In this document: positions 3,555 to 57,713 of the stretch, piece by piece
How the letters are laid out: each line of letters begins with the position of its first letter
How positions within the stretch are numbered: the first letter of the stretch is position 1
Assembly: GCA_963727775.1 (NCBI GenBank)
Contig: CAVSHB010000001.1
Coordinates: forward strand, 1,216,001-1,280,000
Reading direction: 5' to 3'
Source of the DNA: an uncultured Nitrospiraceae bacterium
Lineage (GTDB): Bacteria > Nitrospirota > Thermodesulfovibrionia > Thermodesulfovibrionales > SM23-35
DNA length: 64,000 nt
Program-made: the position numbers and the translations under genes
The notes under the pieces: model-generated
Databases searched by the model: none
What the model was told of the DNA's origin: nothing
The model's input: the letters and a program-made list of their open reading frames with translations, nothing else

Positions 3555-5000
3555 ATGTATCAACTGATATTTCACGATCAAAGTAAAAAAATGGGGCAGG
3601 GTGCGAAAATAAAGCGGAGAGACGTTAGATATGCAGGGCTTACGGTCTTGTTGACGACTTGTTTGCTCATTGCTTTGACTGCATATTCGGAGGCGGGTAT
3701 CGGAGAGAAGGTCTTCGAAAAAGTTTTACCCAACGGGCTCAAGGTAATTCTCCTGGAAAATCACAGGGCGCCGTTGCTCACTTTTCAGGTGTGGTACCGG
3801 GTGGGATCAAGGAATGAGGCCTGGGGGAAGACAGGCCTTTCACATATGCTCGAACATATGATGTTCAAAGGAACGGAAAAAGTCGGACCCGAAGAATTTT
3901 CCAGGATCATACAGGAGAATGGCGGAAATGATAACGCCTTTACGTCCGGTGATTTTACGGCATACTTCGAAAATATCAGCGCCGACCGGGTCCAGGTCGC
4001 CATCGATCTTGAAGCGGACAGGATGCAGAACCTTGTCTTAAATGAAAAGGATTTTGCTCCCGAGCGGCTGGTGGTGATGGAAGAAAGGAGGATGCGTACA
4101 GAGGACAATCCCCAGGCCTATTTTATGGAACAGGTTGAAGCAACCGCATTCCAGATTTCTCCTTATCACTGGCCTACAATCGGATGGAAAGAAGACATCG
4201 AACGCTTTACTCTCGATGACCTAAAGAAGCATTATAAGACTTACTATAACCCCGCTAATGCCTTTCTTGTCGTTGTCGGCGACTTTAGAAAAGATGATCT
4301 TCTTCCAAGGATCGAGAAAGCCTTCGGGAAAATACCAGGGGGAGCTACGCCGGATCAAAAAAGAGATACAGATTCGCCTCAGACAGGTGAACGCAGAATT
4401 ATCGTGAAGAGAGAGGCGGAACTTCTTTCCATTATGATGGGATACCACATACCGAATATGTCCGACCCTGACGCGTATGTGCTCGATGTAGCCGCCGCCC
4501 TGCTTTCGGAAGGTAAAAGCTCCAGGCTTTATCGGGACCTTGTATGGGAAAAAAGGCTTGTTCTCGATGCCGACGCGGACAATTCACTCCTGTCGCATGA
4601 CCCGGGTCTTTTTTCCCTGTCTGCGGAGCTTCTTCCGGGTAAAGATATAATTGACGTGGAGAAGGCGCTCAATCAGGAGATTGAACGTCTGCAGACAAAG
4701 CCGGTCACCGCATATGAACTCGAAAAAGCAAAGAACCAAATCGAGTCGGCTTTTGTTTCCGGACAGGATTCATTGTTTTCCCAGGCTATGCTTTTGGCAA
4801 GATACGAGATTGCGTCCGGATGGAAGAAGATTGATGACTATATCGCATCCGTCCGTAAAGTGACTGCTGATGACATAAAGCGTGTTTCCAATAAATACAT
4901 GGTTCCAGACAATTGTACTATAGGGATTCTTACGCCTTTGCCGTCAAAGGGGAAAAATACAACAGGTGGTTCTTCTCTCAAAGAGCAGATAATAAGGTAG
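3555..5000 (+). CDS. M16 family zinc peptidase, catalytic subunit
   Basis: Inverted zinc motif HMLEHMMFKGT, NAFT and YYNPANA; RBS AAAGGAGG upstream. Confidence 0.93.
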   Translation: MYQLIFHDQSKKMGQGAKIKRRDVRYAGLTVLLTTCLLIALTAYSEAGIGEKVFEKVLPNGLKVILLENHRAPLLTFQVWYRVGSRNEAWGKTGLSHMLEHMMFKGTEKVGPEEFSRIIQENGGNDNAFTSGDFTAYFENISADRVQVAIDLEADRMQNLVLNEKDFAPERLVVMEERRMRTEDNPQAYFMEQVEATAFQISPYHWPTIGWKEDIERFTLDDLKKHYKTYYNPANAFLVVVGDFRKDDLLPRIEKAFGKIPGGATPDQKRDTDSPQTGERRIIVKREAELLSIMMGYHIPNMSDPDAYVLDVAAALLSEGKSSRLYRDLVWEKRLVLDADADNSLLSHDPGLFSLSAELLPGKDIIDVEKALNQEIERLQTKPVTAYELEKAKNQIESAFVSGQDSLFSQAMLLARYEIASGWKKIDDYIASVRKVTADDIKRVSNKYMVPDNCTIGILTPLPSKGKNTTGGSSLKEQIIR

Positions 5001-5012
5001 GAGGATTTTATA

Positions 5013-6353
5013 ATGCCAAGAAACATGCGATCTTTTTTTATGATTTTTATTCTTGTACTGATTGGTTTCAGTCTGACGGCAAATACTTCACAGGCAATGC
5101 AGCCGGTACAGAGGACAGTCCTTACCAATAAACTTGTCCTTCTATCCGGTGAAGAGCACTCAATCCCTCTGATAACGATACAGATTCTCATTGAAGCGGG
5201 CTCAAGAACGGATCCTGCAGGGGAAGAAGGTTTGGCCAATCTGACAGCAAACAGTCTTGTCCTCGGGACTTCTAAACATTCAATCAGTGAAATCAATGAT
5301 GAACTGGATTTTATGGGCGCCTCCCTCCATGCCTCGTGCGGCATGGATTTTATGACTTTGACTCTCCATGTTTTGAAAAAAGATCTGGATAAGGGATTAG
5401 ACCTCCTCATGGAAGTCTTAACACAGCCCTCCTTCCCTGATAAGGAACTTCAAAAAGAAGCAGAGAATACCATTGCGGGCATACAGTCGGATGAAGACAA
5501 ACCTATGTCGGTTGCGGAAAAGACTTTCAGAAAAACCCTTTTTCTGGACAGCCCTTACGCCCATCCGGTAGAAGGTACCAAAGAATCGATGTCAGCTATT
5601 ACCAGAACTTCGGTCATGAAACATTACCAGGCTTATTACCATCCGAATAACGCCATCCTTTCCGTTGCCGGGGACATCACCGGTGACGAAATACAGAATA
5701 AGCTGGTACCGCGTCTTTCAAAGTGGCCGGTTGTTGAAGTTCCGAAAAAGGAATTCACGCCTGTGTTTGCGAAAGGACAGGAAACAGTGAAGATAAGCCG
5801 CAATATCACACAGGCCAACATAATCATCGGACATGCCGGCGTCAGCAGGGGGAATCCCGACTTTTATGCGCTGTCTTTAATGAACTATATTCTTGGAGGC
5901 GGAGGGTTTGCTTCCAGGCTGCAGGAGGAAATAAGGAATAAAAGAGGGCTTGCCTATTCCGTTTCCAGTTTCTTTGAACCGGATAAGTATCCCGGCTCTT
6001 TCCAGATTGTTTTGCAAACGAAAAACACCTCTGCCAAAGAGGCCGTATCTTTGGCACTGCAAGAAATGGATAGGATGCAAAAGGAACAAGTCTCAGACAA
6101 AGAACTGGATAGCGCAAAAAAATATCTTATCGGAAGTTTCCCCATGCGGTTGGATACCCAGTCAAAGCTGGTCAATTTTCTCACACAGGTAGAGTACTAC
6201 GGGCTCGGCATAGATTACCCTGAAAAGTATCCGGCACTTATCGGGTCCGTCACAAAGGAAGATATCCTCAGGGTTGCCGGGACGTATCTCCATCCGAAAG
6301 AATATACACTTGTCATTGTGGCAAATCTGAAGGAAGCCGGATTCGATCAATAA
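5013..6353 (+). CDS. M16 family peptidase, non-catalytic partner subunit
   Basis: M16 fold motifs (EAGS..DP, YYHPNNA, SRLQEEIRNKRGLAY) but no HxxEH (GLANLTANSL instead); signal peptide. Confidence 0.9.
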   Translation: MPRNMRSFFMIFILVLIGFSLTANTSQAMQPVQRTVLTNKLVLLSGEEHSIPLITIQILIEAGSRTDPAGEEGLANLTANSLVLGTSKHSISEINDELDFMGASLHASCGMDFMTLTLHVLKKDLDKGLDLLMEVLTQPSFPDKELQKEAENTIAGIQSDEDKPMSVAEKTFRKTLFLDSPYAHPVEGTKESMSAITRTSVMKHYQAYYHPNNAILSVAGDITGDEIQNKLVPRLSKWPVVEVPKKEFTPVFAKGQETVKISRNITQANIIIGHAGVSRGNPDFYALSLMNYILGGGGFASRLQEEIRNKRGLAYSVSSFFEPDKYPGSFQIVLQTKNTSAKEAVSLALQEMDRMQKEQVSDKELDSAKKYLIGSFPMRLDTQSKLVNFLTQVEYYGLGIDYPEKYPALIGSVTKEDILRVAGTYLHPKEYTLVIVANLKEAGFDQ

Positions 6354-6359
6354 GAGCAG

Positions 6360-9300
6360 ATGACTGATATGAGCGAAGAAAAAACGATCTGCAATCTTGA
6401 CTATTTAATAGGCACTTTGGCCACTGCCTACAAAGGGCTTATTACTTCTCTGGTTCTGAAAGATTTTTGTATGGTGGAAAAGGATGGTTCCACAATCTTT
6501 AAGGGGACCGTTCTCTCAATGCCTGAGGGGACATATATGGCGTCTCTCATACATGAAGGTTTTGAGCTTTCAAGGGGTATTATTCAAAACGGATTTATTG
6601 AATTATATGCTGAAAATGAAATGATAGGATCTGCAAAAAACCTGCAGATCGACATTCTTCAAAGCGGCAGGCATATCGGCACTTTCCTGCTGAAGAAAGA
6701 GAAGAAGGAAGGCTTTTTCATCTCGGCCCTGGAGCTGTCGGAGGAAACCAAGGGCATTAATTTCGGATTGCTCACAGGCCGCTTAAGGAGCAAGGTAGGC
6801 TTATTGAAAAAAGCAGAGGATATCATTTCAGAAATCCTCTCGACAAAACAGGACTGGAAAAAATTCTCCGAAAAAATGAACAGTTTTTCAAAAGACCTTT
6901 TCTGGTTTGACAGAGAAGCTTACTACGCCTGGTATGAAATTATGGTGAAGTGGTCTGTAAATACATGCGAAAGGATAGATTGCATGGTTTGGGACAAAGC
7001 CATATCAAATGTCCTCTCTCTGATAGAGTTGCCTTTGGAGAAAGAGACCGACATGCAAATGCTCGTCTTTTTGGTCAATACATGGCTGAATAGAGTAAAG
7101 GATTCATCTATAAGCCTTGCCGCGGGCCTGACGCATGCAAGAAAGGTATTCTCGCGGATTAATGAGGTATTTCCTGATACAGATATCGGGCCGGCCTTAA
7201 GGGTCCTCATAAATTCTTTGCACGACAGGATCAAAAACACACCCGCATTGAATGCAGATGTTTTACGGGTGGTTAAAGATATTGTTTCAGCCGATGATCA
7301 AATCCTATTGAGCGATTACAGTGAAGAAATGAAAAAAGTATTGGAAGATATTTTATACGGCACAGATGTTTCACCGGGCAATAAGGAATATGCAAAGATC
7401 TTCGAAGTTATAGATTCCGCTGATATGTGGCTTTCAAAAGACAGGGACATGATAACGGTTTTTTCAGATGTCATTGAAAGGAACATATCGAAAGCTTCGG
7501 CGGAGGCATTATCTATGGCTTTCATGAATCTATTCCCTGATTTTAATGCATTACCTTCCGATCTTTACAGAAGGGCCTCAGCCGATACAATCAATCTGAT
7601 GAAAAAACTGATTGACCTGAAAAGCGCCGACATATGTGAAACACTTCTGACCCACTTAGAGAAGCAGTCTGATCCCTTTAAAACAGATATCATCCTCAAT
7701 CCCGAAGCGGCTTCAGCCATACTCGATGCAGGCGACAATAAACTCATCTCGCGCTATAAAGGGATTTTGGCGCAGATCCTGATACCGGCGCCGGGAATTA
7801 CAGGTTTTTCACGAGAGACCTGGGCGGAGATTGTGAATCCGCTTCATCTGACAAGGATTGCAAAGTTTATGGATATCATAAAACTCGGCGCCGGACCTTT
7901 TAAGGAGATCTTAATACGGACAATCTGTAACCTCTATGTTAGCGGGGTTTTTATACCGGACGACAGGCTTTTCCAGAGGGAAATATCAAAATATTTAAAC
8001 TCCGGAATAATCAGGGAGAATTACCTCCTTCATTATATGCTTCTCAAGAAACTGCCTGTTTATTACCATGAAGTCGGCGCTACCGGCAGACTGAGAGATG
8101 ACAGCACGGAGATAGATTCATGGGGCAATGACCCAGTCCTCTATTTCCTTCGTAAACAGGTCCACGTGAATGCAAGCAATCACCTTATTCCTGTTATTGA
8201 AGATATCATTAAGTCGTGGGTATATAAAACAACGGAAGGTTTAAAGCTATCGGTTCCCGAAGATATTTTGAAAACCTTCAATACAGATCTGCTGGAACAT
8301 TACTCCCCGGCTATCCGCCCGCTCTTTGAATCCTTCGGCATAATAAACAACAACGGCATGCATTTTGAAAAACTCCTCAGCACCCCGGAAGATGATATCA
8401 ATCGCAGGCTTTTGTCTTTAAATGTTTCGGATGAAATACGCCTGAAGATACTGTTGTTGTGCAGAATTTATTGCGAGATTGCAAGGAAGTATTCGCTTGT
8501 ACCTTTGGATATCGGCAAAGAAGATATAGCTTCAAGAATTACCATGTCCATACAAAAATTAAAACACCTGAAAGATACAGTCTTATCTCCACAGAAGACC
8601 CAGCCGGAGGAAGCGCTTTTTTTTAAGCGGCATATAGCATTCGGGATACCCTCTGTGATGGGGTCGTATCATGAGCCGAAATTCGATGCGTTTGGAGAGA
8701 CCCTCAGGACCGAGGAAGAGATAAGGACGCTCCATGACGCAATAAGCAATGATATAAAAAACAAAGAAAGCGGGCTTACACTTCAGGATGTCAAACAATG
8801 GATCTGTTGTGTTGGGGACCTCAATGAACTTTTGCAATTGCATGACCTCGGCAATTTTCAGGTGGATGAGGCAGTGGAGATTTTAAGGAGCAATGAGCTG
8901 CATATCTCGCAGATAGTCGATCTGTTGAGGATATGTCAGAGAGAACTTACCTGGCTGGTTGAGATATTTAACATGACTTTTCAGAAACCATTGCTGGAGA
9001 TTCTTGAAAAATTTCCAAAGGATGAATTGCCTGAATACCTCCGGGGGATCAATCCTGAAGACGGCAGTTTTATAATTAAGGCAGCGGATATTATTATCAG
9101 GGCGCTTATGAACAGCATTCCCGGTTTTTTTGAGCTCGACAGACTTTTTAATAATCTCATCGATAAGCTGACCGCTCATATGAGATTACAGCCGGATGAA
9201 ATTTTCAGGCTGACCGATAATCCCCGGATAGCCGGCGATTATTTTTCCATCGACAACCTTTCTGATGAGGACGCAATGAGACTATCTCCGTCTATAGGGA

Positions 9301-10748
9301 ACAAAGCAAAGAACCTTGTTTATCTTAATAACAAGGGCCTGTTCGTTCCCTGTGCCGTTGTTCTGCCTGCCGAACGGACACGGAATTATGAGGAATACAC
9401 CGAAAGCGATGAATTTAAATCAATCCTGAGAAATGCAGTAAGGGAAATAGAAGACAGGACGGGCGCTGAATTCGGCGGTAAACAAAGACCTTTGCTTTTA
9501 TCGGTGAGAAGCGGTTCATATATCTCGATGCCCGGCATTCTCTCATCGATCCTGTACTGCGGCATGAATAAAGAAACCCTTAAAGCCTTTATTGACGATA
9601 CGGAAAACTCCCGGCTTGCGTGGGATTCCTACAGGAGGTTCATTGAGCACTACGGTACTGTAGTCTACGACCTCGACATGGATATATTCGAAACAATAGT
9701 CAATACCTTTATGAAAGGGCAGGGCGTCACAAAAAGGGAAGACCTGAATTCTGAACAGATGGCAAAGATAGTGCATCTTTACAGCGCTGAACTGTCCGCG
9801 AGAGACCGGGAGTTACCTGATGATGTCTATGAACAGTTAAAAGAATCGGTCAAAGCGGTCTTCAGGTCATGGTATTCGGAAAGATCGGTACAATTCAGGA
9901 AAGCAATGGGTATTTCAGAACACTGGGGGACATCTGTAACATTGATGCAGATGATTTACGGCAATGATCCGGGATCAGGAGCTTCGGTGTTTTTTACCAG
10001 AAAACCTCTTACCTTCGAAAAGGGCATTTATGGCGATACAAAAGAGAAGGCGAGCGGAGGCGAGCTTGTCTATGGAAGGACTGCTACGCGTCCTTTGACA
10101 CGGCAGCAGGCATTAATCAATCAACAAAGCCTCGAAGAGATTGATCCGCAATTATTCGGGATGCATGAAGGACTCGCAGGGGACATTGAAAAAGCAATGA
10201 GGGGGCTGCCGCAGGAGGTAGAAGCTACCTATGTAAAGCGAGCTGATGGAGAGAGGATCATCTATGTGCTTCAGACAAAACGGATGGAGTTTCACAGGGG
10301 ATTCACCAAAAGATTTGATGATATATGCAGAATGGAACCCAATATTATCGGTCGCGGAGCGGGTGTGTACGGTGGGGCCCTGAGCGGGACGGTAACGTTT
10401 TCCGTCTCTCCGGAACTTATCAGGAAAAAAAGAGCAATAACGCGTCTTCCGGTAATCCTTTTAAGGAAAGAGGCCAGCACGAATGACGTTGCCCTCATGC
10501 CCGAGATAAACGGCATTATTACATCGACCGGGGGAGCAACATCTCACGCAGCTATTTTGGCACAAAAGTTTCATCTGACTGCAGTCATAGGATGTTCGGA
10601 AATGAAAATAGGACCTGATGAAAAAGGCGGCCTGTCTGCACAGATTGGGACTCTTAAGGTAGCAGAGGGCGACTATATAAGCTTAGACGGTTCAACAGGA
10701 TTGGTCTATTCCGGTTTATGCAGTTCAACTACTCAGGTGGAGGCTTAG
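6360..10748 (+). CDS. giant PEP-utilising dikinase-like protein (long N-terminal region + PPDK ATP-grasp + phosphohistidine domain; no pyruvate-binding barrel)
   Basis: IGNKAKNL, PLLLSVRSGSYISMPG, WDSYRRF, QMIYGN and YVLQTK ATP-grasp motifs; GGATSHAAI His motif; ends just after SLDGSTGLVY. Confidence 0.85.
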   Translation: MTDMSEEKTICNLDYLIGTLATAYKGLITSLVLKDFCMVEKDGSTIFKGTVLSMPEGTYMASLIHEGFELSRGIIQNGFIELYAENEMIGSAKNLQIDILQSGRHIGTFLLKKEKKEGFFISALELSEETKGINFGLLTGRLRSKVGLLKKAEDIISEILSTKQDWKKFSEKMNSFSKDLFWFDREAYYAWYEIMVKWSVNTCERIDCMVWDKAISNVLSLIELPLEKETDMQMLVFLVNTWLNRVKDSSISLAAGLTHARKVFSRINEVFPDTDIGPALRVLINSLHDRIKNTPALNADVLRVVKDIVSADDQILLSDYSEEMKKVLEDILYGTDVSPGNKEYAKIFEVIDSADMWLSKDRDMITVFSDVIERNISKASAEALSMAFMNLFPDFNALPSDLYRRASADTINLMKKLIDLKSADICETLLTHLEKQSDPFKTDIILNPEAASAILDAGDNKLISRYKGILAQILIPAPGITGFSRETWAEIVNPLHLTRIAKFMDIIKLGAGPFKEILIRTICNLYVSGVFIPDDRLFQREISKYLNSGIIRENYLLHYMLLKKLPVYYHEVGATGRLRDDSTEIDSWGNDPVLYFLRKQVHVNASNHLIPVIEDIIKSWVYKTTEGLKLSVPEDILKTFNTDLLEHYSPAIRPLFESFGIINNNGMHFEKLLSTPEDDINRRLLSLNVSDEIRLKILLLCRIYCEIARKYSLVPLDIGKEDIASRITMSIQKLKHLKDTVLSPQKTQPEEALFFKRHIAFGIPSVMGSYHEPKFDAFGETLRTEEEIRTLHDAISNDIKNKESGLTLQDVKQWICCVGDLNELLQLHDLGNFQVDEAVEILRSNELHISQIVDLLRICQRELTWLVEIFNMTFQKPLLEILEKFPKDELPEYLRGINPEDGSFIIKAADIIIRALMNSIPGFFELDRLFNNLIDKLTAHMRLQPDEIFRLTDNPRIAGDYFSIDNLSDEDAMRLSPSIGNKAKNLVYLNNKGLFVPCAVVLPAERTRNYEEYTESDEFKSILRNAVREIEDRTGAEFGGKQRPLLLSVRSGSYISMPGILSSILYCGMNKETLKAFIDDTENSRLAWDSYRRFIEHYGTVVYDLDMDIFETIVNTFMKGQGVTKREDLNSEQMAKIVHLYSAELSARDRELPDDVYEQLKESVKAVFRSWYSERSVQFRKAMGISEHWGTSVTLMQMIYGNDPGSGASVFFTRKPLTFEKGIYGDTKEKASGGELVYGRTATRPLTRQQALINQQSLEEIDPQLFGMHEGLAGDIEKAMRGLPQEVEATYVKRADGERIIYVLQTKRMEFHRGFTKRFDDICRMEPNIIGRGAGVYGGALSGTVTFSVSPELIRKKRAITRLPVILLRKEASTNDVALMPEINGIITSTGGATSHAAILAQKFHLTAVIGCSEMKIGPDEKGGLSAQIGTLKVAEGDYISLDGSTGLVYSGLCSSTTQVEA

Positions 10749-52109: not shown

Positions 52110-53363
52110 CTATTGATAAACCATCGAGGCTATCTTTGCAGTAAGGTCTCCGAGCATATTAGTATAACTTCCGAGTTCGTTGTCGTACCATCCATAGATA
52201 CTCGCCTGTGTAATAGGGATTTCCATGTTTTGAGGGAGTTGTTTCACGAGTTCGGCGGGCATTCCGGAAAACTTTGAAAGGTCGAGAGTGGCAAAGGCCG
52301 TCCTCGTGTGAGTTTCGTGTCCTTCAATGATAGTGGCCGGACCGAAGTGGCCTACAATGTCTGAGGACACATTCTGCTCATCGGTATATTTAATATAACC
52401 TCTTTTTTCTTTTTGCTCGGCCTTGCGGTAAATATCGTTGATAAGCGTCCTGTTGATTGCAGGGCCTCCGACTTCATCGGAAAAGGTCACTACCAAAATA
52501 ATAAGAGAGCCTGAGGAGGTCGGGATACGCACTGATTCGGCGCTGAAGCCGATCTGGTTCATTTCGGGTATCACAAGGCCGAGGGTTTTGGCGGCCCCTG
52601 TGGTAGTCAGAATAATATTGTTCATGATGCTTCTGTTTTTGCGCAGGTCGGTTGCGCCTGACGTCGGCAGCCTGTCAAGCACCTCCTGGGTACCGGTCGC
52701 GGCATGGACAGTGGCCATGGATGCGTTGAGTATCTTCTTCGCGCTGAAGTAATCCAGTAGCGGTTTAATCATATAGGCGAGACAGGTGGTTGTGCAGGAA
52801 GCGGCTGAAATAATGTGATGTTTGGCATTTTCATAGGTGTCGTCATTGATACCTATTACGGTAGTCGTTGCATCCTCAGGAACAGCAAGGCCTTTTTCTT
52901 TTATCTTAAATGGCGCAGAGACAATGACCTTTTCGGATCCTGCTTCAATATGTCCTCTGACAGAGCCTTCTTTGGCATCCGGCGGGACTGTAGGGTCTTT
53001 AAACTTCCCTGTTGCTTCAACCACCACTTTAACGTTATTATTCTTCCAGGCGATATTCCTCGGGTTCCGCGATTCTCTCAGGATAGTAACCGGTATCCCA
53101 TCGATGAGCATTGTACCCTTATCTTCATTGACGTTCTTGATTACCCTTGCCGCTTTATATCCGTGAAGATATTGGTGCAGTGACCCATATGTAGAATCTT
53201 TTTCAATATACAGAGCGACATCCTCAAGCTTTGTCCCTGCTTTTCTGCCTATATTAACGACAATCTCCGAAAAATATTTTCTGCCTATATGGTTCCATAG
53301 TGTCAGCTTGCCGATTCTTCCAAGACCGTTGATGCCCAGGACAGGTTTTTTTTCAGAGATCAT
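52110..53363 (-). CDS. gap: glyceraldehyde-3-phosphate dehydrogenase, atypical long form
   Basis: GINGLGRIG, DSTYG, ASCTTTCL, TVHAATGTQ, TTTGAAK and WYDNE. Confidence 0.9.
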   Translation of the reverse strand: MISEKKPVLGINGLGRIGKLTLWNHIGRKYFSEIVVNIGRKAGTKLEDVALYIEKDSTYGSLHQYLHGYKAARVIKNVNEDKGTMLIDGIPVTILRESRNPRNIAWKNNNVKVVVEATGKFKDPTVPPDAKEGSVRGHIEAGSEKVIVSAPFKIKEKGLAVPEDATTTVIGINDDTYENAKHHIISAASCTTTCLAYMIKPLLDYFSAKKILNASMATVHAATGTQEVLDRLPTSGATDLRKNRSIMNNIILTTTGAAKTLGLVIPEMNQIGFSAESVRIPTSSGSLIILVVTFSDEVGGPAINRTLINDIYRKAEQKEKRGYIKYTDEQNVSSDIVGHFGPATIIEGHETHTRTAFATLDLSKFSGMPAELVKQLPQNMEIPITQASIYGWYDNELGSYTNMLGDLTAKIASMVYQ

Positions 53364-53467: not shown

Positions 53468-56400
53468 CTATAAGTTGGTACCTGTTTCAGCCCTTATCTC
53501 TTTTACCTGATGTTTGCCTGAATAAACAGAGCCGTTCCGTCCGTCGATGCTCAGGAAATCGCCTACCTTAATGACGCGGTTATTCACCATACACTTTTTT
53601 TCATTCTCCCAGACAACTAAATTATTGCAAGCCACAATGCAGGTTTTCCCCAGCCGGTTGGCAATAATTGAGGCGTGAGATGTTGACCCGCCCCGGGCGG
53701 TCAATAATCCGTCAGTCTCCGAAATATGTCTGATGTCATCCGGGACAGTATCAGACCTGATCAATATAAGGGGCGTAGACGGGTCTTTTTCCCTGAGTTC
53801 CTGTATTTCATCCAGATCAAATACGGCCCTGCCGCTCAATGCGCCGCCGCCGACGCCGATTCCACGTGAAAGGTAGCTGGCAGAGAGTTTCTTTGAGGGC
53901 AGAAATGCCATGAAACTCTCTTTTCTTGTGACAGCCATGTCCCGTGTCTGCAGTATGTACAGGTTTTCGCTGCTCCTGCCTTCGAAAGTGAATTCAATCT
54001 CCTGGGCGCCCCACCTCTCCTGATAAATCAGGTCCTTGCTTATTTTGAGCAATGCGGTATAGATTTCCGGAAAATTGTCCTCGAATGAGATTTCGTTTGT
54101 CCTGTCCTCAAAAGGCTTCTGCTCGTTTGATATGGGTAATGTTCTTACAAGTCCTGATACGATATCTTCACCTTGCGCGCTTGTCGCGAAATCACCCCAT
54201 AGCATGATCCTGTCTCCTGACTCTTGGGGGTTACGCGTAAAAAGTACGCCGGTACCTGAATTCGTATCAAGATTGCCGTAGGCCATCGCCTGTACAATCA
54301 CCGCCGTGCCCCAGTTCTCGGACAGACCCAATATCTCACGATACGCCTGCGCCTTATTTGAATACCATGAGTTAAATACCTGTTCTATAGCCTTATGCAG
54401 CTGGGACCTGGGGTCATCTGTAATTTCTATGCCGTTCAATTTAATAGTCTCCCGGTATGCCAATGCAAGGTCTCTCATCTGCTGCGGAGCAAAATGAATT
54501 TTCTTTAAGACCTTGTGTCTGGACTTGAACGAATTCATGATGTCATCAAATTTGTCTCTTTCCATGCCGTACGACATCCCCCAGCACTGTAAAAAACGGC
54601 GGTAACAATCCCATACAAACCACGGCTTGTGGGTCCGTCTTATTAATCCATTACAGATGGATTCGTTTATGCCGACGTTCAGAAAAGAGATCATCATTCC
54701 CGGCATGGAAATAGCGCCACCGCTTCTTACGGATACAATCAACGGATTTTCAGGATCACCAAAGACTTTTCCGGTCTGTTTTTCGAGCGTGGTAAGCTGT
54801 TCCCTGATCTCTTCTTCGAGATGTTCCCCGGCGTATCTGAACCTGTTGATAGCCTTCTCACAGCGGAACACTTCAGTAGTAATAATAAAACCCGGCGGGA
54901 CGGGTATCCCGAGGGTCGCAAGTTTTATGAGGTTATATCCCTTATTCCCAAGATGGATCCTGTCTTTCGTGGCACTGTTCGGGATATGAATACCGGACAG
55001 TGCTTTCTTCGGATCATAGCTCATCAGCAGATCCAGGTTCTGCACATCAAGACCCTCTGCCTGTTCAAAGAGCGTTTTTAATATCCTGCTTATAAAAACG
55101 TCCAATTGCTGGAGCCCGAATGAAGCCGCAACTACCTCCCTCAAAAATTGTTCGGATATCTTGTTGATAAATTCAGATTCATTCTGTTCGTGATCTGTCT
55201 GAAGATATTTTGAGAGTATATTTTCAGCGCCGAGCTGAGAGATTATATGCTTCAGGTTGTTCTTGAAGATGCCGCTGTAATGCGTATTGAGAATATCCTG
55301 TACGGCCTCGGAGAATCCCCCAAATATGTCTATATACTGAGAAAAGGAAAATCTTCTTACCTCCAAAGCTACGGATAATAGTTCCAGCGCGTTTTCCAGT
55401 TTGTTTGAAGATATACCGTCAAGCTGCAAGGCCCTGAAAAAAAGATTGACATACTTTTCGATCTGGAACAGGGTGGCCCTTGTAATAAATTTGAGGTTGA
55501 TTGAATTAATGAGTTCTTCGAAAAGGATATTCGCCAGGTTTTCCAGTCGAAATGTTACCGCCATAGCATCAAATTTTCTCTCATGATATTTACCGTACAT
55601 CGATTGAATGCCGGCGGCAATATGTCTTTTATGGTAGATATTTTCAACCGCCTCGTATTTTTCGGATGACAGGATGATATCTCTCAAGAGCTCCAGGTAG
55701 CTCAGGACGCCTTCAAGACGCTGTGAAACGTTCCCTTCTTCTAATACGGATATCAGCGCGTCTGTATTTGGAAGCCCAAGGCTCTGGATATATCTTAAGT
55801 GATACTTGATATCCTGAGGGTCCATTTTATATTTTTTAGTGAGCAGCTGATAGAATTTGACCGAGAGCTCCGCGCGTTTCCTTTCCCTTTCAGAGATATC
55901 AGGCATGCCCCGGGTAAATTCGAGGATCTCTTCATCCGAAAGGCGGAGAAGGTCTTTTACGTCGGAAATTCCTTTATTGAGAAATATATCATTGAAGATG
56001 ATATACAGCTCATCGATATATGCTCCTGAAGTCTTGATCCGCTGATAAACATCCCCAGGCAGGAATTCCTTCAACGGCGTCTTGTCCTTTGTCCGCCAGA
56101 AGTGTATGACTGCCTCGATAAAATCAACTACACGGGCGCTGCTTTCGACATGGCTCTGCTTCCGCAGAAAATGCACGAGGATATCCGCCCTGTGAGTTGA
56201 TTCATCGATTTCGGTAGAGACTTCTCTTAGCGGGCCTTCAGCCCCGATCTCGCTGAAATAAGCGGGGAACAACTTTGCCATCTGTTTAATGAGGTGATAG
56301 ACGGGTCTGACGTCGCTGTTCAGGAGTTCCGTTATATCTTTCTGGAAAAGATCAGTGTCGTTGATATGTACGCCGCATAATCGCAGATGGATGATTAAGG

Positions 56401-57631
56401 CCGAGATGAGTGATTTGGACCACTTGGGATTGTTCTCTATTAAATCAAGCCAGGTACGGATATTTTTAAGGTGGGAGCGATTTGACCTGACCTGCCATTC
56501 GTCGGTTACCCCGCATATCCCCGGATGATGGAACCCGAGAGAGATGATATTTTGCAGATACCACTCAACAAGACCGCTGTTACCTTTATTGTATATTTCA
56601 TTGCCGATAACCTGGACGCAATATAAGGCCGTATCTGCATACATGTTAAAATTAATTTTCAGCATGCCGAGTATCCCGGAAAGTACGCTCTTTATCTGCT
56701 CGGGCTTTTCGATCTTCACAATTACGGAGATCGTTCGGTTGATTTCTCTGAGCGTATTCTCATGTATACCCGAAAGTCCCTTGGTCTCCATGATCATCAG
56801 GAGATAAGCAATCTTCAGGTTAAGGTCATTAAGCGCGGTTCCTGTTATCGCCAGCATGCCTGCAAGTTCTTCATAGAATTTCACTAATTGCATATAACCG
56901 GGCAGTCTTAAGATTTCTTTTAACCGCTCGTAACGGTCTGTGGATTTCCCGACATTGTTGAGTTGAACGACCAATTCATTCAGATGCGCGTGTGAAACGG
57001 GATAGCACAGTTTTTCGAGCTCTCCGAGCTTATTTGCGTTTATCAAGAGATTTGCAGTTTGTTTTAGCCGCAGGAACGGATCTTCTTCCTGAATCCAGTA
57101 TTCATATGTTGCAGATAGGTATCTGACAAGCAGGTTATTGAACATGTCAAGGTCAAAGTGCGACGGGGTTTTCCCAAGGACAATCTGTCCCAGCTTTTTC
57201 AGTTGATGGGGGTTCGTGACAAGCAGGAAAAACTGCTTGTCCGGCAGCTGATAAAGTCTTGCAAAACACTCGTCAAATACAGTTTCATATTTCCGCAGAT
57301 CGCCGTTGCCGTCTATGAGTATTTTTTCGATGTAGAATATAATGCCTTCAACAGCCGACTGCTGCACGCTGTAGTCGGGATTGTTTATCGCTTTTAGAAA
57401 TATATCCAGGATAGTCCTGATGACCTCTATACCTTTTTCGTGGTGGTCATGGACATAGAAATTCTTGAGGGCATACGTCCTTGTCTCTTTTACGATAAAA
57501 CCCCAATCCTGAGGATGGTGGTCCAACTCGCGTAAAAGCGGTTCAACGGCGCTGACAATGCCGGGGTAGTCTTTAACTACCTCCCGCAGGATTTCATATT
57601 CTGATGCTGCAGCTTTTGTATCCGAAGACAT
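53468..57631 (-). CDS. giant PEP-utilising dikinase-like protein, paralog of 6360-10748
   Basis: LGNKGYNL, PVPPGFIITTE, PLIVSVRSGGAISMPGMM, QAMAYGN, QGEDIVSG, YILQTR and GGSTSHASI; no C-terminal pyruvate-binding barrel; start 57631 (RBS AAGGA) or 57664. Confidence 0.87.
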   Translation of the reverse strand: MSSDTKAAASEYEILREVVKDYPGIVSAVEPLLRELDHHPQDWGFIVKETRTYALKNFYVHDHHEKGIEVIRTILDIFLKAINNPDYSVQQSAVEGIIFYIEKILIDGNGDLRKYETVFDECFARLYQLPDKQFFLLVTNPHQLKKLGQIVLGKTPSHFDLDMFNNLLVRYLSATYEYWIQEEDPFLRLKQTANLLINANKLGELEKLCYPVSHAHLNELVVQLNNVGKSTDRYERLKEILRLPGYMQLVKFYEELAGMLAITGTALNDLNLKIAYLLMIMETKGLSGIHENTLREINRTISVIVKIEKPEQIKSVLSGILGMLKINFNMYADTALYCVQVIGNEIYNKGNSGLVEWYLQNIISLGFHHPGICGVTDEWQVRSNRSHLKNIRTWLDLIENNPKWSKSLISALIIHLRLCGVHINDTDLFQKDITELLNSDVRPVYHLIKQMAKLFPAYFSEIGAEGPLREVSTEIDESTHRADILVHFLRKQSHVESSARVVDFIEAVIHFWRTKDKTPLKEFLPGDVYQRIKTSGAYIDELYIIFNDIFLNKGISDVKDLLRLSDEEILEFTRGMPDISERERKRAELSVKFYQLLTKKYKMDPQDIKYHLRYIQSLGLPNTDALISVLEEGNVSQRLEGVLSYLELLRDIILSSEKYEAVENIYHKRHIAAGIQSMYGKYHERKFDAMAVTFRLENLANILFEELINSINLKFITRATLFQIEKYVNLFFRALQLDGISSNKLENALELLSVALEVRRFSFSQYIDIFGGFSEAVQDILNTHYSGIFKNNLKHIISQLGAENILSKYLQTDHEQNESEFINKISEQFLREVVAASFGLQQLDVFISRILKTLFEQAEGLDVQNLDLLMSYDPKKALSGIHIPNSATKDRIHLGNKGYNLIKLATLGIPVPPGFIITTEVFRCEKAINRFRYAGEHLEEEIREQLTTLEKQTGKVFGDPENPLIVSVRSGGAISMPGMMISFLNVGINESICNGLIRRTHKPWFVWDCYRRFLQCWGMSYGMERDKFDDIMNSFKSRHKVLKKIHFAPQQMRDLALAYRETIKLNGIEITDDPRSQLHKAIEQVFNSWYSNKAQAYREILGLSENWGTAVIVQAMAYGNLDTNSGTGVLFTRNPQESGDRIMLWGDFATSAQGEDIVSGLVRTLPISNEQKPFEDRTNEISFEDNFPEIYTALLKISKDLIYQERWGAQEIEFTFEGRSSENLYILQTRDMAVTRKESFMAFLPSKKLSASYLSRGIGVGGGALSGRAVFDLDEIQELREKDPSTPLILIRSDTVPDDIRHISETDGLLTARGGSTSHASIIANRLGKTCIVACNNLVVWENEKKCMVNNRVIKVGDFLSIDGRNGSVYSGKHQVKEIRAETGTNL

Positions 57632-57713
57632 TTTAGATTCCTTAATCATTATATAATAGAACATGGCGTTTTTTACATTATTTCAAATGCTGTAAAAAGG
57701 CAGTATAGCCGAA

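Follow-up and report, generated by a model that had tools for sequence, protein, structure and literature searches.

The stretch of DNA analyzed here, referred to as the window, comprises 64,000 nucleotides of an uncultured Nitrospiraceae bacterium (contig CAVSHB010000001.1, positions 1,216,001 to 1,280,000) and carries two genes for very large proteins related in their C-terminal parts to pyruvate phosphate dikinase (PPDK). The protein encoded at 6360-10748 is called P0001 and its paralog, encoded at 53468-57664, is called P0002; the P0001 type is subfamily 1 and the P0002 type subfamily 2. The paralog is directly followed by a gene for an unusually long glyceraldehyde-3-phosphate dehydrogenase (GAPDH). 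The parts of P0001, among them a core probably related to the central domain of glucan, water dikinase (GWD) and phosphoglucan, water dikinase (PWD), and the two associated genes are as follows.

6360..10748, forward strand: dikinase gene P0001, 1462 aa, subfamily 1 (open reading frame, Pfam, homologs, tree)
6387..6761, forward strand: N-terminal domain specific to subfamily 1, residues 10-134, strongly conserved (alignment)
6762..7709, forward strand: variable region, residues 135-450, not alignable with the paralog (alignment)
7710..9254, forward strand: family core, residues 451-965, predicted acceptor domain and probable remote homolog of the GWD/PWD central domain (profile match)
8052..8177, forward strand: motif block with invariant R579, D586, R598 and H602 and near-invariant K599 (alignment)
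8592..8690, forward strand: insert confined to the family, with E751, K756, R757, H758 and E772, mostly unmatched in GWD/PWD (alignment)
9087..9101, forward strand: D910-x-x-x-R914, in register with E900 and R904 of potato GWD1
9285..10289, forward strand: PPDK-type ATP-grasp domain, with K982, R1050, E1288 and Q1305 invariant
10335..10718, forward strand: swivelling phosphohistidine domain, catalytic H1396 at 10545-10547
53468..57664, reverse strand: paralog P0002, 1398 aa from the first ATG, subfamily 2 (open reading frame, alignment)
52110..53363, reverse strand: long-form GAPDH of 417 aa, the next gene downstream of P0002 and the usual partner of the family, with catalytic Cys and His kept but without Asp32

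The reading frame of P0001 is uninterrupted, with no internal stop. Pfam places PPDK_N at residues 1006-1220 and PEP-utilizers at residues 1364-1447 and nothing else; the phosphoenolpyruvate (PEP)/pyruvate barrel, PEP-utilizers_C, was not found in P0001 by Pfam, and the NCBIfam model of PPDK (TIGR01828) scores 295 bits against a cut-off of 843. The top PDB match is PPDK of C. symbiosum, over residues 977-1249 and 1326-1453 (E = 8.7e-63), and the ATP-grasp domain has a profile E-value of 1e-156 to the PPDK type versus 1e-38 to PEP synthase. Residues T1394-S1395-H1396 make up the T-S-H motif, after which the protein runs on for 66 residues. The layout given by the first-pass annotation, a 1462-aa protein with an ATP-grasp domain and a TSH phosphohistidine domain and then a stop, is thus confirmed by the reading frame, Pfam and the PDB match.

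Residues K982, R1050, E1288, Q1305 and H1396 are invariant in all aligned members (74/74 and 52/52), and K1307 is the minority state, present in 11 of 74 subfamily members, most of which have Arg there. T1394, which we take to correspond to PPDK's regulated Thr, is replaced by Ala in 18 of the 74, and the other conserved residues presumably have the roles of their catalytic counterparts in PPDK. The equivalent of K982, Lys22 of PPDK, is assigned a catalytic role in an earlier report (PMC4844700). The N-terminal domain of subfamily 1 has invariant Cys, Asp and His residues (C11, C37, D98, H105), appears beta-rich by eye only, and gave no match in Pfam and PDB searches; it may be a metal, redox or ligand sensor. 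The variable region that follows is a candidate partner-docking or spacer region, and the family-only insert is a candidate specificity loop.

P0001 and P0002 share 29% identity over residues 451-1452 (E = 2e-118), in agreement with the first-pass annotation, which had recognized the paralog; its end coordinate, 57631, corresponds to a later ATG, and the first ATG gives 57664. The two motifs quoted there were placed at 8052-8177 and 8625-8690. Residues 400-960 of P0001 have 244 homologs, mostly of 1450-1470 aa and with the same two Pfam domains, and the core of P0002 has 1691. The homologs are mostly full-length, have these two domains and are annotated as PPDK or hypothetical, so that the barrel-less layout cannot be put down to truncation at this locus. 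In a quick tree (FastTree only, 53 rows) the P0001 type, so far seen in Nitrospirota, stands apart from the P0002 type, which is found in Nitrospirota and Desulfobacterota-like genomes. Their first ~450 residues are also different. No longer homolog scored in the size range of 2448-5000 aa, which is weak evidence against fusions, and in the ESM Atlas only clusters of the family itself were found, below 0.9. No published description of the family was found in the literature listings searched, which covered few subscription journals. At one locus (L309, G258:C1:681500-689500) the dikinase is present as two overlapping frames of 651 and 794 aa, through either an error of sequencing or a genuine break, in a genome where no GAPDH other than the long form was found.

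The family is linked to GAPDH by gene order and by co-occurrence. Among the P0002-type loci inspected, the best 80 of at least 592, a same-strand GAPDH gene lies within ~4 kb of the dikinase in 56, and a GAPDH is nearby in 40 of the 51 loci with 2.5 kb or more on each side. Of the 80 loci, 32 have a glgA-like gene, 10 have pgk, and one has glgA without gap. The order gap-dikinase-long gap-pgk-tpi was seen at L019, L287 and L296. In a quick tree the GAPDH proteins form three clades, namely the canonical one, a long form of ~400-480 aa, and a third, unrelated to the long form and termed clade II, which stands beside 5 of 16 P0001-type genes. Long frames at gap in two genomes (G167, G226), considered as possible gap-pgk fusions, are not of that kind.

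The co-occurrence counts come from carriers that are kin and not independent. The long GAPDH is present in all 50 genomes tested from among the 80 loci. When 201 genomes were drawn evenly from the phylum of G175, the dikinase was found in 55, the long GAPDH in 55, and the two together in 54. One exception is a dikinase fragment of 160 aa (G323), the other a gap gene interrupted by a stop (G297); G294 carries both genes in two copies. Within 151 genomes of the window's own phylum, the long GAPDH is present in 14, of which 12 also carry the dikinase, the remaining two being G056, with an internal stop, and G098. Clade II occurs in 12 of the 151, all of family f17 (38 genomes) and all among its 13 P0001-type carriers, and the presence of the P0001 type and of clade II agrees in 18/18 genomes of the mixed genera g30, g38 and g56; 7 of the 12 clade II genes are unlinked from the dikinase. 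A strict partner rule for the P0001 type is contradicted by the source genome, which has no clade II gene. It is one of 5 among 17 P0001-type genomes without a clade II partner, and four such carriers have canonical GAPDH only (G089, G104, G131, G129).

Both partner clades are class I GAPDHs that keep the catalytic Cys and His and the phosphate-site residues. Asp32 is lost in both, and clade II has Ser188. In one study, loss of Asp32 and presence of Ser188 are tied to NADP(H) use, although plastid NADP enzymes keep Asp32 (PMC3728087). The residue pattern suggests that the partner GAPDHs use NADP(H). In two single-contig genomes, G224 and G258, and in the draft G259 no class I GAPDH other than the long form was found, and G291 has an apparently identical copy of it with pgk beside RuBisCO and PRK, where the dikinase is absent. 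Since it is the only GAPDH found in G224 and G258 and is duplicated in a Calvin-like setting in G291, the long GAPDH is very likely an ordinary glyceraldehyde 3-phosphate enzyme, and a special acid substrate, which we considered, is unlikely in view of G224 and G258. In all, what the family is inherited with are special GAPDH genes and not those of glycogen metabolism. This points to a step or switch at the GAPDH stage of sugar metabolism that has so far gone undescribed.

Several further observations were made on these genes. The G291 cluster (L295, G291:C1:500000-512000), with a form III-like RuBisCO, PRK and the duplicated long GAPDH and pgk, is Calvin-cycle-like. The seven unlinked clade II copies (L272-L278) stand beside RuBisCO-like (4/7), methylglyoxal synthase (3/7), sugar ABC transporter (5/7) and transketolase-like (2/7) genes, which suggests an unknown sugar catabolic pathway. 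G152, G155 and G178 have a divergent second type of PGK-like gene of 440-540 aa (L281-L285) that does not adjoin the dikinase.

The core of the family was compared with the central domain of GWD and PWD, a likeness that the first-pass annotation had suggested. The GWD/PWD set came from a metagenome scan with short motifs that gave 119 stretches, of which 46 open reading frames of at least 880 aa were kept (37 GWD-type, 9 PWD-type) and shorter ones dropped. All seven long frames tested had GWD Pfam domains, and a profile of 30 frames matched the central-domain structures of StGWD1 (9HA9, 9QVI) with E = 1e-135. When the motif windows of the 46 frames were aligned by hhalign with 87 family cores, the combined set gave a probability of 71.5, an E-value of 3.6e-5 and a score of 50.7 over 331 columns. 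With only PWD the E-value was 2.8e-4 and with only GWD 0.043; the positive control, GWD versus PWD, gave 2e-37. Reversed-alignment controls scored 22.8 and 25.9, none of 99 column or block shuffles exceeded 29.5, and none of 20 natural decoy profiles reached the family score (top scores 21.4 and 25.2). Two parts of the core match in order (residues 520-720, E = 0.006; residues 775-960, E = 4e-4), and with the family-only insert dropped the match rises to a probability of 89 and E = 2e-6, a cut that was chosen after seeing the alignment.

Other comparisons weaken the match or are silent on it. Full N-terminal alignments against GWD/PWD gave only E = 0.003, the P0001-type profile alone was not significant (E = 0.14-0.15), and hmmsearch of the family against GWD was not significant either (best E = 0.05). 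PDB and Pfam searches with the family core returned nothing meaningful, 9HA9 was absent among the PDB matches listed (60 of 74), and a whole-length profile comparison with GWD reported the ATP-grasp domain and not the central domain. The residues nevertheless fall into register, including the motif that the first-pass annotation had in mind: R579/D580 lie on the invariant Arg-Asp of GWD, K599/H602 on its Lys-Leu-His, and D910/R914 on its Glu-Glu-x-x-Arg helix. Residue 910 is Asp or Glu in 51 of 52 members and R914 is present in 51 of 52; their match to E900 and R904 of GWD1, the numbering of which we verified on the 9HA9 chain, depends on the remote alignment. In the structural report, E900 and R904 are proposed to act as proton donor and stabilizing base, the domain acts on a hydroxyl of a macromolecule lying in a groove, and no clear PDB equivalent of the GWD1 domain is reported (PMC13553574). 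On balance it is quite probable, judging from profiles and aligned residues, that the family core and the GWD/PWD central domain share ancestry; by analogy with GWD the core would be helical and have a groove.

Protein abundance is available for one cultured organism. According to two proteome papers (PMC8691401, PMC5947623), Sfum_2063 of Syntrophobacter fumaroxidans encodes a 1424-aa "PPDK" and is followed by genes for GAPDHs of 444 aa and 336 aa and then by pgk and tpi. Syntrophobacteraceae loci show the same order, and by length, label and gene order Sfum_2063 is a probable P0002-type member. The dikinase has a total intensity-based absolute quantification (iBAQ) value of 2.3e5, against 1.4e7 for both the long GAPDH and the true PPDK, 1.6e7 for PGK and 1.3e8 for canonical GAPDH; a 2018 table gives 5.58 (dikinase), 7.64 (long GAPDH), 8.12 (PGK) and 8.60 (canonical GAPDH), which we take as log10. 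By these tables the long GAPDH exceeds Sfum_2063 by factors of ~62 and ~110, and PGK exceeds it by factors of ~69 and ~345, figures to be read with the caution that the two papers may share samples and that iBAQ may under-count large proteins. The protein is present in all five growth conditions tabulated there, at ~1% of its partner.

We propose, with a probability of only about 0.38, that these proteins are swivel-histidine dikinases with an acceptor at the GAPDH step, most likely 3-phosphoglycerate, and that they use AMP and pyrophosphate (PPi). The reaction would be 3-phosphoglycerate + ATP + phosphate = 1,3-bisphosphoglycerate + AMP + PPi. By homology with PPDK, the residues of which are present, the ATP-grasp domain would put the beta-phosphate of ATP on H1396 and the gamma-phosphate on inorganic phosphate. 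As the remote profile match implies, the His domain would then swing to the GWD-like central domain, where D910 and R914 would assist transfer and the family-only Lys-Arg-His loop would hold a small anion. The product would be fed to, or drawn from, the partner GAPDH, probably with NADP(H); in the source genome, where no subfamily-1 partner exists, P0001 would work with the long or the canonical GAPDH. Such a reaction would be near equilibrium, serving either as a gluconeogenic push pulled by PPi or to recover ATP from AMP and PPi. Its calculated energy is +3.7 kJ/mol, or -15.5 with hydrolysis of PPi, versus +18.8 for PGK. An acyl-phosphate product is favored because the two high-energy bonds spent suit it, and small-molecule acceptors are, to our knowledge, the rule among dikinases. 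The 3-phosphoglycerate reading is ranked first because PPDK chemistry fits an acyl-phosphate, because small acceptors are usual, and because partner-less P0001-type genes persist; the four P0001-type genomes with canonical GAPDH only fit a metabolite drawn from a common pool.

Several findings count against 3-phosphoglycerate as the acceptor. PGK is present in 50/50, 52/52 and 149/151 genomes, so nothing is displaced and replacement of PGK is ruled out. A spare source of 1,3-bisphosphoglycerate does not account for the near-absence of long GAPDH genes from genomes that lack the dikinase. The abundance of Sfum_2063 is low for a flux enzyme and speaks against a 1:1 channel in that organism. The acceptor of GWD is a hydroxyl and not a carboxylate, and basic residues in the core do not prove an anionic substrate, because GWD also has many invariant Arg in spite of its neutral substrate.

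A protein-modifying dikinase is a close rival, though likewise less probable than not. The beta-phosphate of ATP would here be placed on the partner GAPDH or on a ligand bound to it, the enzyme would be a switch set by ATP versus AMP and PPi, and the variable N-terminus would pick the partner. GAPDH itself would then be the other large acceptor that the first-pass annotation had allowed for. This is placed close behind the 3-phosphoglycerate reading because it explains better the near-strict mutual dependence with two different GAPDH clades and the low abundance, ~1/60 to 1/110 of the partner, of a protein encoded by the first gene of its cluster. The duplication of long gap and pgk in G291 without the dikinase fits it as well. 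Ser, His and Thr residues invariant in the long clade (S245, S277, H352, T353, T355) lie in or near the long GAPDH insertions and also count in its favor, but clade II lacks them. The N-terminal 450 residues differ between subfamilies whose partners differ, and the GWD-type domain, in the structural work (PMC13553574), handles a macromolecular hydroxyl in a groove. On the other side, 4 of 17 P0001-type genomes have canonical GAPDH only, and in many Desulfobulbales the dikinase lies beside canonical gap while the long gap is at or near pgk. In G258 the dikinase is in two frames, possibly by sequencing error, while the long form is its only GAPDH found, and the abundance data come from one organism in papers that may share samples. 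We know of no dikinase with another protein as end acceptor, which is itself a point against this possibility. The wider claim that the family contains the first protein-acceptor dikinase, which would switch a dedicated NADP-type GAPDH and read ATP versus AMP and PPi in sulfur-cycle anaerobes, with a core that would stand as bacterial sister to the central domain of GWD/PWD and would place the origin of these enzymes in central-carbon control, is unlikely and we hold it with still more reserve.

A low-flux repair or side-metabolite enzyme acting at GAPDH, with 4-phosphoerythronate, another sugar acid, a free triose or a damaged cofactor as acceptor, appears improbable. The low abundance would suit it, as would the D/E-x-x-x-R motif, which is fit for activation of a hydroxyl, and the RuBisCO-like, methylglyoxal synthase, sugar ABC transporter and transketolase-like neighbors of unlinked clade II GAPDH. 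No neighbor singles out any of these candidates, however, the long GAPDH behaves as an ordinary enzyme of glyceraldehyde 3-phosphate, and NAD kinase is present in 5/5 carriers and so is not replaced.

The acceptor first suggested for P0001, an alpha-glucan, finds little in its favor, and a bacterial dikinase phosphorylating glycogen is a rather remote prospect. The remote homology to the GWD/PWD central domain with its proposed transfer residues kept, the glgA-like gene in 32 of 80 P0002-type loci, a glycogen-synthase-family gene in 65 of 67 carriers (a count made in carriers only) and a glycogen phosphorylase gene 3.8 kb from the paralog in the window are all compatible with it. P0001 has no CBM45, CBM20 or GWD-type His domain, however, and neighbors and co-occurrence point to GAPDH: gap stands between glgA and the dikinase in 31 of the 32 glgA loci, which are mostly of one lineage, gap occurs without glgA in 25 loci, glgA is found in none of 16 P0001-type loci, and the link to a special GAPDH in 54 of 55 genomes would be left unexplained. 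Separate proteins with the full GWD layout also occur in bacterial-looking contigs, some beside glycogen-type genes. These intron-free frames with GWD motifs (L143, L144, L145, L160, L169, L173, L192, L204, L206, L209, L214) are mostly of ~1160-1210 aa and may be true bacterial glucan dikinases. The two scanned, L143 and L192, have CBM45-type, GWD His and ATP-grasp domains. As judged by eye, several of the frames are followed by a gene for a sugar-isomerase-like TIM barrel, and some stand beside glycogen-type genes; in L167 this TIM barrel forms one protein with a PWD-like part.

Half of a split PPDK, with the barrel encoded elsewhere, can be practically dismissed: the ATP-grasp and His domains are PPDK-like and no canonical PPDK was found in the source genome, but no free barrel gene was found in this 96.8%-complete genome either, its sole barrel being in a 797-aa PEP synthase, 21 of 27 related carriers keep a whole canonical PPDK, and the N-terminal core has invariant active-site-like residues of its own. 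The same facts uphold the earlier view that P0001 is neither PPDK nor PEP synthase, and the 21 of 27 carriers also rule out replacement of PPDK by the dikinase. Replacement of NAD kinase is likewise ruled out by the 5/5 carriers that have it.

The immediate neighborhood of P0001 includes one further feature.

3555..6353, forward strand: two M16 peptidase genes, whose end lies 6 bp short of the dikinase start (Pfam)

These genes are probably co-transcribed with P0001 in the source genome; neither they nor the downstream repair gene were seen beside 16 P0001 orthologs. The GC content of P0001 is near the genome mean, and a promoter and terminator scan gave results at chance level. Elsewhere in the source genome there are a gap-pgk pair of the canonical kind, dsrA and a gene for a membrane pyrophosphatase. 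The same genome also encodes cytochrome c oxidase and heme o synthase, at 195-2927 of the window and at G000:C3:20392-21648. The PEP synthase gene (G000:C1:1444103-1449042) lies between two genes that by eye resemble what we take to be PEP-synthase regulatory kinases, and a broken PEP-synthase-like gene with an internal stop (G000:C2:687441-690406) adjoins a transposase-like frame of 461 aa.

If either of the two leading readings is true, an undescribed reaction or control point would exist in lower glycolysis and gluconeogenesis. It would reach more than a quarter (55/201) of the sampled genomes of one phylum rich in sulfate reducers, and Nitrospirota as well. The dikinase gene is at present labelled PPDK and would thus be a wrong entry in metabolic models. 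A bacterial family that keeps the proposed transfer residues would serve as an outgroup when asking how starch phosphorylation arose and how it works, and S. fumaroxidans, with its probable member, is a cultured carrier in which the protein has been detected.

Compared with known systems, P0001 is like PPDK (EC 2.7.9.1; 1KBL, 1DIK) in having an ATP-grasp domain followed by a phosphohistidine domain, the T-S-H motif and K982 as the equivalent of Lys22, and it is unlike PPDK in having no barrel and ~965 extra N-terminal residues. With GWD1 and PWD it shares a collinear profile match of the central domain over ~330 columns, the Arg-Asp and Lys-Leu-His motifs and the residues matched to E900/R904, but at ~13% identity. 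The domain order also differs, as the first-pass annotation had stated, being central-ATP-His in P0001 and central-His-ATP in GWD. The ATP-grasp domain of P0001 is PPDK-type while that of GWD is closer to rifampin phosphotransferase (RPH) and PEP synthase; furthermore, P0001 lacks CBM45, CBM20 and GWD1_pHisD and has the extra Lys-Arg-His loop and the GAPDH link. The barrel-less RPH and phenolic phosphate synthetase are similar in the swivelling His, an acceptor domain for a substrate other than pyruvate and a C-terminal His domain (PMC4844700). The matches to RPH are weak and confined to the shared domains, the acceptor domain of P0001 stands before the ATP-grasp, and PDB searches gave no match between the P0001 core and the substrate domain of RPH. 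PGK would be the functional analogue if 3-phosphoglycerate is the acceptor, with the same proposed acceptor and product and a gap-pgk-tpi neighborhood. It is unrelated in sequence, uses ADP/ATP, and is kept in all 102 genome searches (50/50 and 52/52). From its sequence, then, P0001 would work as the swivel-histidine dikinases do, and yet it belongs with neither PPDK, nor GWD/PWD, nor RPH.

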